From a virus, in UHGV virus genome UHGV-0050054: DNA of 14,933 nucleotides. One strand, given 5' to 3'. Positions 3,369-13,944 of this stretch are shown here, in pieces (positions within the stretch are counted from its first letter, which is position 1; the number at the start of each line of letters is the position of its first letter). The notes beneath the pieces were generated by a model. The model ran no database searches, was not told where the DNA came from, and worked only from the letters and a program-made list of their open reading frames with translations. The position numbers and the translations under genes were made by a program.

Positions 3369-3851
3369 TTATTTGATAAGAAGTGAAGGTTTCCCAACTT
3401 TGAGTTGAGCGCCGGGGATATTTATTCCTGCTTTTAGTTGGTGTTTGATTGCCAGTTTGTCGGCTTTAATTGTCGTTTCAAACTCAACGTATTCAGGAGG
3501 AAGGGCGCTTGAGTCGATTATTTCTACAATTTCTGACGGTTTGCGGATTGTTACCTGGTGAATACCTGCTCTAATCTTTTTCTTGCCTACCATTTCAAGC
3601 GATGACGCTATATACGCCATAATGCTGTCAATCTTATTTTGAATTACTGCGGCTCGCTCATTTAGTGACTTTGCCTCTTCCTTGAGGCGTTCAGCATAAC
3701 CAGTTTCATTTTTAATGACGGAAAGAAGTTGCTCTATTTTATCGGTAAATTCTCCTTCCATGCCTTCTATTGTGTCAGCAATCATCTCTGGTTCTAAATC
3801 TGAATCCATCAATTTTGCGTATTCATTGGCAATTTCATATAGTTTGCTCAC
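3369..3851 (-). CDS. Phage protein, siphovirus Gp157-like (tentative); GTG start at 3851
   Basis: Track ORF 3369..3857; GTG at 3851 has GGAGG 6 nt upstream. Size and position directly downstream of recT fit the Gp157 family that often accompanies RecT/Erf; family call from memory. Confidence 0.6.
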   Translation of the reverse strand: MSKLYEIANEYAKLMDSDLEPEMIADTIEGMEGEFTDKIEQLLSVIKNETGYAERLKEEAKSLNERAAVIQNKIDSIMAYIASSLEMVGKKKIRAGIHQVTIRKPSEIVEIIDSSALPPEYVEFETTIKADKLAIKHQLKAGINIPGAQLKVGKPSLLIK

Positions 3852-4746
3852 TGGCAACCTCCAGTTTCGCTTTGCATTCTGCGTAAATGGCTTGTACGTT
3901 CTGCTGCAATTTCATTCCAGATGTCAGGCGATATGCTTCTGCAAAATATCGCTTCAAATCATCCATGTTTTCAGCCTGAGCCATTTCATCACAAAGAAGT
4001 TGTGCTTTATCCGTTATTTCCTGCTGGCGTTTCCGTTCATCTTCGCGGATATCTTCCTCTGATTTGTGCGGCATAACTGGTTCAGTCCACACACCTTCTT
4101 CTTCGTTTAGTACGTGAATAGCACTATCAAGACGTGATGCCTTAGGCCAATACTTGCTTGCACGCTTTACGACCGTCTTTCGCGCCATCTCATTCCAGTG
4201 ATTTACCCATGGTCCTTTATCGCTGAATGCCGCCTTGCTTGTTTTCCTTACAGCCTCAATTTCAGCCAGACTCATCTCTTCCGTTAGATAATCACCTGCT
4301 GGCGTCTTAACTGTGCAGTAAACGCCAACGATATCACCACGATCACCGAAGGCGTTGTATTTATGGGTTGGTGCTTTATCAAGCCCGTTTGACTCATAGG
4401 TATCGTTAGCATGAACAAGTTTTGCCTGACCCCATGAGATAACACCAGACTCCATTGCAATATGGAGCAATCCCATATAACTGATATCAAGGCACACCAT
4501 GCCGTCGCGCGGAACCAGATAAGCCAGTTTGCTAGCCGGGTTTAAGGTGATGCCGATCGCCGCTACATTGATGATGGCGTTCTGTGCGCTGGTTGGATTT
4601 GCCAGTGCTGTTTTAGCCAGGTAATCGTTTTTCTGGAAATACTGAATTGCAAACTGGCTTTCCTTAGCCCATGTCACCGTCTGTTCAGTCAATGCTCCGC
4701 AGAATAACTGCTCTTGCTGTTTAACGAATTCAACGATATTGCTCAT
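3835..4746 (-). CDS. recT: RecT-family single-strand annealing recombinase
   Basis: 303-aa ORF with GPWVNHWNEMARKTVVKRASKYWP, matching the conserved RecT core as I recall it from Rac RecT (GPWVTHWEEMAKKTAIRR...). GGAG RBS; ATGA overlap with the upstream gene. Confidence 0.85.
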   Translation of the reverse strand: MSNIVEFVKQQEQLFCGALTEQTVTWAKESQFAIQYFQKNDYLAKTALANPTSAQNAIINVAAIGITLNPASKLAYLVPRDGMVCLDISYMGLLHIAMESGVISWGQAKLVHANDTYESNGLDKAPTHKYNAFGDRGDIVGVYCTVKTPAGDYLTEEMSLAEIEAVRKTSKAAFSDKGPWVNHWNEMARKTVVKRASKYWPKASRLDSAIHVLNEEEGVWTEPVMPHKSEEDIREDERKRQQEITDKAQLLCDEMAQAENMDDLKRYFAEAYRLTSGMKLQQNVQAIYAECKAKLEVASEQTI

Positions 4747-7807: not shown

Positions 7808-8140
7808 TCACCCCTCATACAGTAGCTTACTGCCTAATTTCATTTTCTGGCGACCAACACAAGTCACACCCATTTCACTGCGTGGCTTGCTGTACCATGT
7901 GCGCTGATTCTTGCGCTCAATACGTTGCAGGTTGCTTTCAATCTGTTCGTGGTATTCAGCCAGCACCGTAAGGTCTATCGGATTCAGTGCGCTTTCTACT
8001 CGTGATTTAGGCTTTCGAGTCAGCGAGAGAATTTTGCGGGTGTCTGGCTTTGCGCTTACCCCAACCAACAGGGGATTTGCTGCTTTCCATTGAGCCTGTT
8101 TCTCTGCGCGACGTTCGCGGCGGCGTGTTTGTGCATCCAT
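7808..8140 (-). CDS. N: Antitermination protein N
   Basis: 110-aa product MDAQTRRRERRAEKQAQWKAANPLLVGVSAKP... matches lambda N as recalled over most of its length, including the Arg-rich N-terminus; AGGAG RBS; nutL upstream. Confidence 0.9.
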   Translation of the reverse strand: MDAQTRRRERRAEKQAQWKAANPLLVGVSAKPDTRKILSLTRKPKSRVESALNPIDLTVLAEYHEQIESNLQRIERKNQRTWYSKPRSEMGVTCVGRQKMKLGSKLLYEG

Positions 8141-8632: not shown

Positions 8633-9292
8633 TTAACTAAATGTCTCTTCAGGCCACTGGCTGGCGATAACTTTCCCTACTACGGAACAGCTATCATTGC
8701 ATGGAATCATTGGATATTGCTGGTTTAGTGGCTGTAGGAACACCTGACCGCTATCCCTGATCAGTTTCTTGAAGGTAAACTCGTCACCACCAAGTCTGGC
8801 TATGCAGAAATCACCTGGCTCAACAGCCTGCTCAGGGTCAACGAGAATTAACATCCCGTCAGGAAAGCTTGGCTTGGATCCTGTTGGCGCGGTCATGGAA
8901 TTACCTTCAACTTCAAGCCAGAACGCACAATCACTGGCTTTTTTGGTTGTGCTGACCCATCTCTCCGCATCACCTTTGGTAAAGGTTCTAAGCTCAGGCG
9001 AGAACATCCCGGCCTGAACATGAGAAAAAACAGGGTACTCATATTGTTTTTTAACGGGGGCAGATGAGTATTCGCCAACAGGTGAAAATGTACCGTCGTG
9101 GTTGAATGAGACGTTATCAATACCAAGGTATTTAAACACCACACCAATCTCGTCAAGAGATGGATGACGAGATCCGCGCAACCAGTGACCAATTCCACCC
9201 TGCGTCATACCAAGCTCTTCAGCTAACTTCTCTTGAGTTATGCCGAGCTCTTTCATTCTGGATCTAGCCAGTTCATACCATTTCATTTTCAT
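8633..9292 (-). CDS. cI: CI-type prophage repressor (N-terminal HTH, C-terminal LexA/S24-like domain)
   Basis: C-terminal half ([38 protein letters not shown]...[28 protein letters not shown]...[11 protein letters not shown]) matches lambda CI as recalled, apart from a few substitutions; the N-terminal HTH differs from lambda. Track ORF begins at a TTG (9334); ATG 9292 or 9286 is more likely. Confidence 0.9.
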
Positions 9293-9301
9293 ACCCTTAT
9301 T

Positions 9302-9375
9302 ATTACGCTCTGTACTAAAACCATCCATGCACAAGATGTATTTTTTGTTTGCATTCTAAAAGTACATATCGTATT
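9302..9375. promoter_or_regulatory. Putative OR operators
   Basis: ATTACgctctGTACT at 9302..9316 and AGTACatatcGTATT at 9361..9375, 60 bp apart; the second overlaps the PR spacer and -10. Confidence 0.4.
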
Positions 9376-9403: not shown

Positions 9404-9619
9404 ATGAGCAACCTACGAAAATATCGAGAGTCACTGAATATCTCTCAAACAACACTTGCTAAGGCAGTTGGATGCACACAGGGAGCTATCGGACATTGGG
9501 AATCTGGTCGTCGCTTCCCAGACCTTAAAACATGCCGTGCTCTTGTTGAGTGCCTAAACAAGTTAGGCGCAAAAGTCAGTCTTGATGACGTGTTCCCGCC
9601 GGAACACAAAGCCGCTTAA
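9404..9619 (+). CDS. cro: Cro-like repressor (HTH, XRE type; not lambda-Cro-like)
   Basis: 72-aa product from ATG 9404 with GGAGGG RBS (track ORF 9233..9619 extends upstream in frame). HTH motif ISQTTLAKAVGCTQGAIGHWESG; divergent from cI across OR. Confidence 0.8.
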   Translation: MSNLRKYRESLNISQTTLAKAVGCTQGAIGHWESGRRFPDLKTCRALVECLNKLGAKVSLDDVFPPEHKAA

Positions 9620-9628
9620 GACATTCCA

Positions 9629-9659
9629 GCTCTTACACATCCCAGCCCTGAAAAAGGGC
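9629..9659 (+). promoter_or_regulatory. nutR: nutR (boxA + boxB)
   Basis: GCTCTTACA ... GCCCTGAAAAAGGGC, matching lambda nutR boxA and boxB as recalled. Confidence 0.85.
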
Positions 9660-9725
9660 ATCAAATTAAACCACACCTATGATGTATGCATTTATTTGCA
9701 TTCCTTCAATCAATTGTTATCTAAG
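9660..9725 (+). terminator. tR1-like Rho-dependent termination region (by homology only)
   Basis: ATCAAATTAAACCACACCTATG...TGCATTTATTTGCAT...CAATCAATTGTTATCTAAGGAAATACT closely resembles the lambda nutR-to-cII interval containing tR1; no intrinsic hairpin plus T run. Confidence 0.4.
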
Positions 9726-9738
9726 GAAATACTGACAT

Positions 9739-10032
9739 ATGGTTCGTGCAAACAAACGCAACGAGGCTCTACGAATCGAGAGTGCGTTGCTTAACAAAAT
9801 CGCAATGCTTGGAACTGAGAAGACAGCGGAAGCTGTGGGCGTTGATAAGTCGCAGATCAGCAGGTGGAAGAGGGACTGGATTCCAAAGTTCTCAATGCTG
9901 CTTGCTGTACTTGAATGGGGTGTTGTCGACGACGACATGGCTCGATTGGCACGACAAGTTGCTTCGATTCTCACCAATAAAAAACGCCCGGCGGCAACCG
10001 AGCGTTCTGATCAAATACAAATGGAATTTTAA
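9739..10032 (+). CDS. cII: Transcriptional activator CII
   Basis: 97-aa product MVRANKRNEALRIESALLNKIAMLGTEKTAEAVGVDKSQISRWKRDWIPKF... matches lambda CII as recalled; AAGGA RBS. Confidence 0.92.
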   Translation: MVRANKRNEALRIESALLNKIAMLGTEKTAEAVGVDKSQISRWKRDWIPKFSMLLAVLEWGVVDDDMARLARQVASILTNKKRPAATERSDQIQMEF

Positions 10033-10045
10033 CAACATCCAACGA
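9977..10045 (-). ncRNA. oop-like antisense RNA (tentative; 5' end uncertain)
   Basis: Minus strand has the lambda-oop-type terminator (CGCTCGG-ttgccg-CCGGGCG then TTTTTTATT, plus 9977..10005) inside the cII 3' end, and a TATAAT at plus 10050..10055. No convincing -35. Confidence 0.3.
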
Positions 10046-10054
10046 GGTAATTAT

Positions 10055-10327
10055 ATGCGAAACAAAGGCTTTAATCCATCTGATACACACAAAGAAGCTA
10101 AGCGTTTGCGCTTCCTTCGTTCCATTGATGAAAGAACTCAAATCTCTTTTGTGAAAGTTGCCAGAACTGAGCTTCTGAAGGCTGAGGCGAGGGCGTTGCT
10201 CCCGTCTCTACCAAAAGAGGATGGATATACGTTCATTCCAAACGCATTTCTGGAAAAGCTGCTCAAAGAAGACATATCCGTAAGTCAGTTTAACGATGTT
10301 CTTAAGGTCTTTCGTCAAGGCAGGTAG
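10055..10327 (+). CDS. Hypothetical protein (90 aa) between cII and the initiator gene
   Basis: ATG 10055 with GAGG RBS 7 nt upstream; in frame with the longer track ORF 9746..10327. Stop TAG lies 2 nt before the initiator ATG. Confidence 0.55.
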   Translation: MRNKGFNPSDTHKEAKRLRFLRSIDERTQISFVKVARTELLKAEARALLPSLPKEDGYTFIPNAFLEKLLKEDISVSQFNDVLKVFRQGR

Positions 10328-10329
10328 TT

Positions 10330-11277
10330 ATGAGCAATACAGCAAAAATCTACGATTTCAGCGCCGCACACGAGCGCAGGAGCAACAGGATGGAGAACCA
10401 GAAAACTGGTTACATTCCGTTGTACCGGAGCATTCTGAAACAGTCATGGGCGAAAGATGTTTATCTTCGCACCCTGTGGGAAAACCTTCTCCTGAATGCC
10501 GCCAGAAAGCCATACAAAGCGAATTTCAAAGGTCATGAATGGCATCTGCAACCCGGTCAACTGGTTGTGACAGCAGCTGATTTAGGTCTTCAGTTATGCG
10601 ACAGGCATGGCAAGCCGGCAAGCCGTGATCAGGTTGAGCGGATGCTTCAGGTTTTTGTGAAAGAGGGGATGATCACCATTGATGGAGAGAAGCAAAAAGG
10701 TCGTGTGATCACCATCACAAATTACCATGAATATGCTCAAAAAATGGACAATTCACCCGCACATGAAGCCGCACAAACAACCGCACATGATGCCGCACAT
10801 GATGAAGCCAGTAATGGCGCGGCTTTCAGCGTACATACCGCACATGAAAGCGCACATGAAGCCGCACAAACAACCGCACATCATGAACAAGAAGGTATTA
10901 ACAAGAATATAAATAATACCCCCCTACCCCCCAATGGGGGAGGCGATGGGCAGGTTAAACATGAACGTCGCAAGGCAGAACGAATCGACTACGAATCCTT
11001 CCTGAACGCCTACAACACCGAAGTCGGTGACAGACTGCCACACGCTGTTGCGGTCAACGAGAAACGCAAACGCCGCCTGAAGAAAATCATCCCGCAACTG
11101 AAAACGCCAAACGTGGACGGTTTCAGAGCGTATGTCAGGGCGTTTGTGCATCAGGCCAAGCCGTTTTACTTCGGAGACAACGACACTGGCTGGACGGCAG
11201 ATTTTGATTACCTGCTGAGGGAAGATTCGTTAACGGGAGTTCGGGAAGGGAAGTTTGCAGACAGGGGGATTGCATGA
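10330..11277 (+). CDS. Replication initiator, lambda O-like N-terminus, with internal iteron origin
   Basis: 315-aa product; [10 protein letters not shown] resembles lambda O MTNTAKILNF; repeated [10 protein letters not shown] segments coincide with DNA iterons; stop overlaps the helicase start. Confidence 0.85.
10758..10945. repeat. Putative replication origin: iterons, AT-rich tract, GC-rich hairpin
   Basis: Identical 31-bp blocks at 10758..10788 and 10851..10881; at least 5 GCACATGA motifs; AT-rich 10886..10918; CCTACCCCCC-AAT-GGGGGAGG hairpin at about 10925..10945. Same layout as lambda ori inside O. Confidence 0.6.
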
Positions 11278-13533: not shown

Positions 13534-13944
13534 ATGAAGCAAACAATCTTCCTCCGAACTAAGCAACAACAGCAAGCCGCAATAAATGCCATCCTCGCAA
13601 CACCACTCGATAAAGACAAGCCAGTTACCATCCGCATTACTGACTACAAGCGCAATCTTGACCAGAACGCAAAATTTCACGCGATGGTCGCAGATATCGC
13701 TCGTCAGGTTCAATGGTGCGGCAAATGGTTAAAACCAGAACAATGGAAGGTTTTGTTGATTAGCGGTCATGCAGTGGCAACAAAGCAGGAAGCTGATGTT
13801 TTGCCCGGGCTTGAAGGCGAATACGTCAACATTCGCGAAAGTAGCGCGCAGATGAGCGTGAAGCGCATGGCAAGCCTGATTGAGTACACGACAGCATGGG
13901 CTATTGGTCAGGGTGTCAGATTTACCGACAGGAGGTACGAATGA
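13534..13944 (+). CDS. ninB: NinB-family protein
   Basis: 136-aa product; [33 protein letters not shown] parallels lambda NinB RSLDQNRKLWACLGDVSRQVEWHGRWLDAESWK as recalled; AAGGAG RBS. Confidence 0.8.

Follow-up and report, generated by a model that had tools for sequence, protein, structure and literature searches.

Although the replication modules of lambdoid phages belong to textbook knowledge, no function has, to our knowledge, ever been assigned to the small open reading frames (ORFs) located between cII/oop and the initiator gene. In this study, we have analysed one such ORF, of 90 amino acids (aa), in the phage genome UHGV-0050054; we refer to it as ORF90 and to the whole 14,933-nucleotide (nt) stretch of DNA, whose numbering is used throughout, as the window. 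ORF90 is a genuine, constrained protein-coding gene, and the reading that we tentatively favour places its product in the replication module of the phage.

The closest described systems come from an alignment of 23 lambdoid phages by Hayes and colleagues, in which position 1 of the oop-proximal conserved sequence coincides with the ATG of lambda O, of a P22 orf48 homologue (hkaW and others) or of an HK97 gp53 homologue (orf54), and in which the ORFs to the left of the O-like gene include HK022 orf48 and HK97 p43 (PMC3349717). An earlier, sequence-only reading of the window had singled out ORF90 as a gene that lambda lacks at this position. Relative to lambda, ORF90 is indeed an additional 90-aa ORF with a ribosome-binding site of its own (GAGGT), since the lambda annotation has nothing between cII (38360-38653) and O (38686-39585). 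Among lambdoid phages at large, however, such a gene is not unusual: P22, HK620, HK022, HK97 and epsilon34 all carry one (PMC3349717), and ORF90, itself uncharacterised, falls into a class of ORFs that has been recognised before in this slot. In the literature searched, P22 orf48 is mentioned only within constructs and no functional test of slot ORFs is described; searches for the name phrog_2519 (the family to which ORF90 belongs) and for coupled or truncated O proteins returned nothing.

P22 orf48, HK620 hkaW and HK022 orf48 resemble ORF90 in lying between cII or c1, with oop, and the initiator gene. P22 orf48 is likewise small and basic and starts under the oop promoter, and both positional features of the orf48-type ORFs, a start under that promoter and a stop at the initiator start, are found in ORF90. 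The two differ in that the orf48 stop overlaps the gene 18 start by 8 nt, whereas the ORF90 stop abuts the initiator ATG, and in that orf48 is only 48 aa long and lacks the conserved core described below. The family that holds P22 orf48 (locus L104, 1350-1496), phrog_1913, is labelled "tail protein"; this label looks erroneous, given the early-operon position of orf48 upstream of gene 18. A second kind of slot ORF, represented by epsilon34 gp49 and HK97 p43 (phrog_1331, 53 aa), is also small and basic and overlaps the start of the O-like gene, but it belongs to a different PHROG family and has no detectable sequence similarity to ORF90.

Direct reading of the sequence and its translation places the ORF90 ATG at 10055-10057, followed by 90 sense codons and a TAG at 10325-10327. 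The frame is mechanically open from a GTG at 9746, where the upstream stretch overlaps cII in another frame; this GTG is not the conserved start. The protein matches phrog_2519, an uncharacterised phage family, from end to end (residues 1-90 on profile positions 1-90 of 90; expect value [E] 1.4e-56), as do all 27 of the 27 aligned relatives. Pairwise ratios of nonsynonymous to synonymous substitution rates (dN/dS) among seven diverged loci were 0.05-0.23, with synonymous divergence (dS) ranging from 0.9 to saturation. Constraint acts on each of the three protein segments and is strongest in the C-terminal core; even for codons 1-31 the ratio of nonsynonymous to synonymous differences per site (pN/pS) was 0.47. 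The ORF is intact in all 82 near-identical loci, where 15 nucleotide alleles encode 5 protein alleles, and full-length relatives of 68-98% identity are mostly exactly 90 aa long (86 aa in one Salmonella clade) and share the C-terminal sequence FRQGR. The length of 90 aa alone is within what chance would give, whereas this conservation is beyond chance and identifies the ORF as a gene. The lack of conservation in related genomes that the sequence-only reading had allowed for was therefore not seen.

The ORF90 segment is present in 279 of 5,426 complete Escherichia coli genomes (about 5%), where 24 of the 25 annotations listed give an intact gene for a "hypothetical protein", and in 57 of 50,697 phage records, mostly (49) those of Shiga toxin 2a (Stx2a)-converting phages. 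An exhaustive profile search of 1.84 billion representative proteins returned 15 proteins only. In the record of Enterobacteria phage CUS-3 the ORF is unannotated; in that of Kapi1 it is a hypothetical gene for which phrog_2519 and a CDD Phage_rep_O motif are noted. CUS-3 cII is annotated as 381 nt (126 aa; locus L001, 2931-3311), compared with the cII-family length of 97 aa in the window, and the deposited CUS-3 annotation of this region is imprecise. A 2.7-kb record described as a "Staphylococcus aureus phage" (OR850084.1) holds a 73%-identical ORF90 homologue; its identity, E-value and bit score equal those of the match to a Salmonella phage record, and it is probably contamination or a mislabelled contig.

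The protein has two parts. A search with the C-terminal 43 residues found only further small proteins, of 59-62 aa, in Proteus, Providencia, Xenorhabdus and Klebsiella. These short forms align to ORF90 residues 32-90, which thus constitute the conserved core, here called mini-O; in Proteus, Providencia and Xenorhabdus prophages, mini-O stands alone as a protein of 59-62 aa. Five of its residues are invariant (I61, P62, N63, L83 and F86), and the succession of IPN, helix and helix is common to forms that range from Escherichia to Xenorhabdus.

Profile comparisons suggest, on moderate statistics, that the core is homologous to the first 60 or so residues of O-type initiators. Of 20 members, 17 matched the Pfam family Phage_rep_O, with a best E of 5e-5 and in each case at about profile positions 6-39 of 95, and four O-like or DnaD-like PHROG families were matched by 18, 10, 4 and 2 of 27 members. 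An hhalign comparison placed residues 32-88 collinear with initiator residues 1-60 (P 0.003). Lambda O and other members of Phage_rep_O (PF04492) share with the core the order strand-helix-helix over their N-terminal 60 or so residues, together with the pattern G-Y/F...N...L...D-L/I-S/T..Q-F..L; in the core, which also has the N-terminal peptide of such initiators, the strand motif reads G-Y/F-x-x-I-P-N. In an AlphaFold2 (AF2) model of the ORF90 protein (mean predicted local distance difference test score, 80; 80-92 in the core), helices at residues 10-23 and 26-51 are followed by a short hairpin at 53-59 and by helices at 63-71 and 76-88. The homology and structure searches that the earlier reading had proposed thus point to a core that resembles an initiator N terminus.

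The winged helix of the ORF90 protein is incomplete, since only positions 6-39 of the 95 in Phage_rep_O are matched and both the protein and its model end after the second helix. Unlike Phage_rep_O initiators, it has no recognition helix, wing, iteron-bearing linker or C-terminal domain for binding the helicase or its loader; the last is carried by the neighbouring 315-aa initiator. The protein stops where the recognition helix and wing would continue, and it is therefore not an initiator.

Modest statistics suggest that the N-terminal part has another source and that ORF90 is a composite of an orf48-like start and a mini-O core. An hhalign comparison matched ORF90 residues 10-27 to residues 11-28 of P22 orf48, a weak resemblance over 18 columns (P 0.002). 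Six of 27 relatives matched phrog_1913 (best E 0.0024); the window protein itself gave no match to it at E 0.1, and the BLASTP E-value was 0.096. The gene order at a Proteus locus is orf58 (phrog_1913, E 9e-8), mini-O, O and DnaB, with orf58 and mini-O as separate, overlapping genes; a protein search with this orf58 found five Proteus proteins only. Because an orf48-family gene and mini-O occur there as separate neighbours, the ORF90 protein reads as a fusion of both.

The most constant feature of the locus is the junction between ORF90 and the initiator gene (AGGTAGTTATG), in which two bases (TT) separate the ORF90 TAG from the initiator ATG at 10330. The spacing TAGnnATG is invariant in all loci with 86- to 90-aa forms, even where the O protein is only 31-63% identical; the 92- to 93-aa forms have an ATGA overlap (4 nt) instead, and the short forms overlap by 8 nt. 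The sequence-only reading had noted the 2-nt gap and taken the genes to be coupled; the geometry is as it described, is kept or replaced by one of these overlaps in every relative examined and is of the kind seen in translationally coupled gene pairs, with a conserved stop within a few nucleotides of a start. Since the initiator ATG is preceded by only AGGT, compared with GAGGT for ORF90, the initiator is probably translated by termination-reinitiation after ORF90.

There may be a second route to the initiator. An internal ATG, at Met21 of the initiator (10390), is preceded by a strong AGGAG (10378-10382) at a spacing of 7 nt, and several gene callers place the initiator start of related contigs there, 60 nt downstream; the annotation of Klebsiella phage 2b LV-2017 also starts the initiator at the Met21 equivalent. 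This site could provide initiation independent of coupling, and two initiator isoforms are possible, of which only the long one would carry the lambda-O-like N terminus MSNTAK. In one Klebsiella relative (L097), Met21 of the initiator is replaced by Leu, so that the overlapping ATG is the only in-frame Met between the ORF90 homologue and the DNA-binding domain. The first 60 nt of the initiator gene, up to Met21, are unusually conserved at synonymous sites (proportion of synonymous differences [pS], 0.0-0.39, versus about 0.75 in ORF90 just upstream in the same loci). This patch is a homologue of the start of lambda O, where the lambda promoter pO lies, and its reverse strand holds a degenerate pO (TCGTAG-17-CATAAC). 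It may provide homology through which initiator modules are exchanged, or it may itself function as an element of the DNA or RNA.

At its other end, ORF90 begins beneath a putative antisense promoter. The reverse complement of 10050-10057 is CATATAAT, a perfect -10 hexamer, TATAAT, that overlaps the start codon. It is invariant in all eight of the loci with 86- to 93-aa forms that were examined, and in the Klebsiella and Proteus relatives TATAAT adjoins the ATG. The arrangement is that of lambda pO, whose -10 sequence, CATAAT, lies over the ATG of O, and of P22, where the annotated oop promoter covers the start of orf48; in an alignment to lambda, ORF90 starts at the position of the lambda O ATG relative to oop. 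The overlap of an oop-like promoter region with the ORF90 start, which the earlier reading had also described, is thus upheld by conservation and by the P22 parallel. A generic promoter scan did not call the site, whose -35 sequence, TGGATT, is weak. Downstream of it on the minus strand, a terminator hairpin and U-run at 10008-9981 (fold -21 kcal/mol, z -2.8) would end an oop-like RNA, the 5' end of which is predicted, from where the -10 hexamer lies, near 10040-10046. Identity to lambda is about 96% over the 3' end of cII and the oop terminator, and this similarity breaks off at the cII stop. A scan of 9600-10500 against Rfam, which holds no oop model, gave no match.

The cII 3' end and oop segment (9930-10060) forms a conserved block in 144 phage records. 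Mosaic breakpoints of the Stx2a phages lie near position 9970, which implies that the oop terminator, ORF90 and the initiator gene travel as one block. The oop-proximal conserved stretch corresponds to Clark's "sequence 5" (PMC3349717); CUS-3 annotates bsq5, one of Clark's boundary sequences, elsewhere in the early region, between N and cI.

Gene order across relatives ties ORF90 to replication. In every locus examined (about 100, comprising 80 viral contigs, two species-representative genomes and the contigs with diverged relatives, from Escherichia, Salmonella, Scandinavium, Pseudescherichia, Klebsiella, Proteus and Xenorhabdus), the ORF90-family gene lies directly upstream of a Phage_rep_O initiator gene, and a DnaB-type helicase gene then follows wherever the contig reaches that far. 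In these loci, the family was never found outside the translation unit of the initiator. Its cII neighbours are of at least three types, with identities to the window cII of 100%, about 67% and about 40-47%, and in the Xenorhabdus loci it is present with no cII upstream; the adjoining initiators comprise at least three DNA-binding-domain types, with differing C-terminal domains too, and the helicases at least three types, some of them only 31-37% identical to that of the window. The synteny is thus with the initiator: the gene travels with the initiator-helicase module and not with cII, which favours a role in replication over one in lysogeny. The sequence-only reading had left both roles open for an accessory factor; linkage to the initiator speaks for the first of them, and the loci without cII speak against the second.

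Our preferred reading, to which we would give just less than an even chance, is that ORF90 is an early gene of the replication module whose composite product, translationally coupled to the initiator, serves the initiator/DnaB-type-helicase module as an accessory or regulatory subunit. ORF90 shares its strand with cro, cII and the initiator and helicase genes, is contiguous with the last two and, by this gene order, is transcribed with them all. This reading is based on a truncated initiator paralogue that is always encoded with an initiator and a DnaB-type helicase. Ribosomes that end ORF90 would re-initiate at the weakly signalled initiator ATG, so that both proteins would be made together. 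The ORF90 protein, as a truncated paralogue of the initiator, would be unable to bind the origin itself, and it may bind the initiator, or a partner that both have in common, and thereby tune assembly of the origin complex or of the helicase.

A more specific version, which we regard as possible but doubtful, is that the core is a "micro-initiator", a separate, co-translated truncated paralogue that would control origin firing post-translationally. It could be envisioned to cap initiator oligomers, to deliver the DnaB-type helicase of the phage to the complex at the origin or to compete for a protease or chaperone that acts on the initiator N terminus. MicroProteins such as the Id proteins and LITTLE ZIPPER are truncated paralogues that titrate a larger protein; the ORF90 protein would resemble them in comprising part of the domain of a larger DNA-binding protein without its DNA-contacting elements.

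Several observations weigh against these interpretations. The initiator homology rests on scores that are individually weak: the window protein reaches 16.8 bits against Phage_rep_O, where the Pfam gathering cutoff is 28.7, and the hhalign probability is 10%. The exhaustive search of 1.84 billion representatives did not strengthen the link, since none of the 15 relatives was a full-length initiator. A profile search of PDB sequences gave no match even at E 10, an NCBIfam search with the ORF90 protein gave none, and the defence models of PADLOC returned only a 13.6-bit match to JetB, which was treated as noise. The 18 columns of similarity to P22 orf48 lie over DNA that also bears the antisense promoter, and part of this similarity could reflect constraint at the DNA level. 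The core is, moreover, closer to consensus O-type N termini than to its own neighbouring initiator, a departure from the microProtein scheme that disfavours a simple heterodimer with the cognate initiator. Finally, the same initiator DNA-binding-domain type occurs without ORF90 in Klebsiella (80% identical) and Yersinia (74%) phages. In these, the initiator partner is a lambda-P-type protein, not a DnaB-type helicase, and what lies between cII and the initiator is a 265-aa "transcriptional regulator" (Klebsiella; L092, 1704-2501) or a KilAC antirepressor (Yersinia; L093, 1821-2501), so that the slot accepts varied cargo. P22, for its part, has a DnaB-type helicase without a mini-O core. ORF90 is thus not obligatory for either the initiator or the helicase.

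That same evidence allows ORF90 to be seen as cargo, a "moron" in a variable slot that might serve exclusion of competing lambdoid phages, by mimicry of the consensus initiator N terminus, or else counter-defence or host takeover. Unrelated genes in the slot of relatives, dispensability for the same initiator type, the likeness of the core to consensus N termini rather than to its own initiator and the narrowness of the family all agree with this explanation, which we nevertheless consider unlikely, because the gene is always in the translation unit of the initiator, because known defence and counter-defence models gave no match and because its gene order points to expression from the early lytic operon and not from a prophage-active promoter. 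A somewhat smaller probability attaches to a purely cis-acting leader, in which ORF90 would deliver ribosomes to the initiator start and carry the antisense pO while its peptide had no function. The invariance of the stop/start geometry, the weaker AGGT signal of the initiator, the -10 hexamer over the start codon and the filling of the slot, with the same overlap, by unrelated small ORFs (P22 orf48 of phrog_1913, epsilon34 gp49 of phrog_1331) are what a leader would predict; purifying selection on amino acids along the whole of ORF90 at saturated synonymous sites, and retention of the IPN-helix-helix core from Escherichia to Xenorhabdus, are not, and a pure spacer would preserve neither length nor residues. 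A leader role can, however, coexist with a function of the peptide.

The remaining alternatives are much less probable. A lysogeny factor acting with cII or oop would account for the position next to cII, for the oop promoter over the ORF90 start and for the block of oop terminator, ORF90 and initiator that the Stx2a breakpoints delimit; linkage to the initiator across at least three cII types and in Xenorhabdus loci without cII, and the lack of similarity to regulator families in PHROG, Pfam and NCBIfam searches, make it a poor candidate. We give even less credence to a decaying relic, a functionless stump from the 5' end of an initiator gene that was displaced when modules were exchanged. 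As an account of how ORF90 arose, such a stump is plausible, given a core homologous to the first 60 or so initiator residues and a start exactly where lambda O starts relative to oop. As an account of its present state, it conflicts with the data on selection: dN/dS is far less than 1, every one of the 82 copies is intact, length is kept across genera, and the segment persists in 279 complete E. coli genomes, with an intact gene in 24 of the 25 annotations listed. Least credible of all is that ORF90 forms part of the initiator, by frameshifting or through an upstream start in the same frame, for which the 2-nt gap is the only support. The two genes are in different frames, and their offset differs between relatives (5-nt spacing, 4-nt overlap or 8-nt overlap), so that the initiator cannot start inside the ORF90 frame, an outcome that the sequence-only reading had kept in view. 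In addition, the initiator frame has a TAA at 10303-10305, there is no slippery heptamer at 10306-10325, and the N terminus of the initiator is itself homologous to that of lambda O. Fusion by frameshift or read-through is accordingly rejected.

Taken as a whole, the window covers the early region of a lambdoid phage that is P22-like (Table 1). CUS-3 is about 99% identical to it over 9722-10700, and JEP4, HF4s, Gally and Kapi1 are also close. The N terminus of the window initiator matches that of lambda O (MTNTAKILNF), and the helicase gene start overlaps the initiator stop by 4 nt. The initiator gene contains an array of CCGCACA-type repeats, translated as repeats in the protein too, that, from a position analogous to that of the lambda ori iterons inside O, presumably represents the origin iterons of this initiator type.

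Table 1. Features of the ORF90 locus and neighbouring genes in the 14,933-nt window
Feature	Positions	Strand	Evidence or remarks
RecT-like gene	3835-4746	-	
N-like antiterminator gene	7808-8140	-	
cI-type repressor gene	8633-9334	-	
cro	9404-9619	+	
cII, 97 aa	9739-10032	+	Pfam Phage_CII, E 5e-48; 3' end overlaps the oop-like antisense RNA
Predicted oop-like antisense RNA (ends approximate)	9975-10046	-	Terminator scan, fold, near-identity to lambda oop
Shine-Dalgarno sequence GAGGT of ORF90	10044-10048	+	6 nt 5' of the ATG; sequence reading
Putative pO-like promoter	10050-10078	-	-10 TATAAT (reverse complement of 10050-10055, overlaps the A of the ATG); weak -35 TGGATT (reverse complement of 10073-10078); 17-nt spacer
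ORF90 (phrog_2519 family), TAG stop included	10055-10327	+	Translation, profile match, dN/dS, intact copies
ORF90 codons 1-31, basic N-terminal extension	10055-10147	+	Only in Escherichia/Salmonella-type long forms; absent from short forms
ORF90 codons 32-90, conserved core (mini-O)	10148-10324	+	Helix, short hairpin with invariant IPN, two helices
Putative coupling junction	10322-10332	+	Weak Shine-Dalgarno sequence AGGT, TAG, 2 nt, initiator ATG
O-like replication initiator gene, 315 aa	10330-11277	+	Pfam Phage_rep_O, E 3.6e-15; phrog_345, E 5e-100
60-nt conserved patch at initiator 5' end, then Met21 ATG	10330-10392	+	Synonymous-site conservation
12-nt CCGCACA-type repeat array in initiator gene, two clusters	10745-10899		Repeat search
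DnaB-type replicative helicase gene, 458 aa	11274-12650	+	Pfam DnaB_C, E 9.5e-78; DnaB, E 4e-13
NinB gene	13534-13944	+	

In conclusion, ORF90 is a strongly constrained gene found in P22-like coliphages (CUS-3 and Kapi1), in 49 records of Stx2a-converting phages and in about 5% of complete E. coli genomes. What this study adds to the recognised class of slot ORFs is its apparent composite make-up, the likeness of its core to a truncated initiator, its strict linkage to initiator and helicase genes and the strength of selection upon it. A core that resembles a truncated initiator N terminus leads to a concrete hypothesis, namely, interaction with the initiator or the helicase, and through such an interaction ORF90 could affect the tuning of prophage induction and hence the replication of Shiga toxin phages. 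If the peptide proved dispensable, the locus would still offer a clean case from nature in which termination-reinitiation coupling goes together with an antisense promoter over a start codon. If the core does act as a micro-initiator, it would add to lambdoid replication a layer of regulation not recognised before, with a presence in about 1 in 20 complete E. coli genomes and in the Stx2a phage set.

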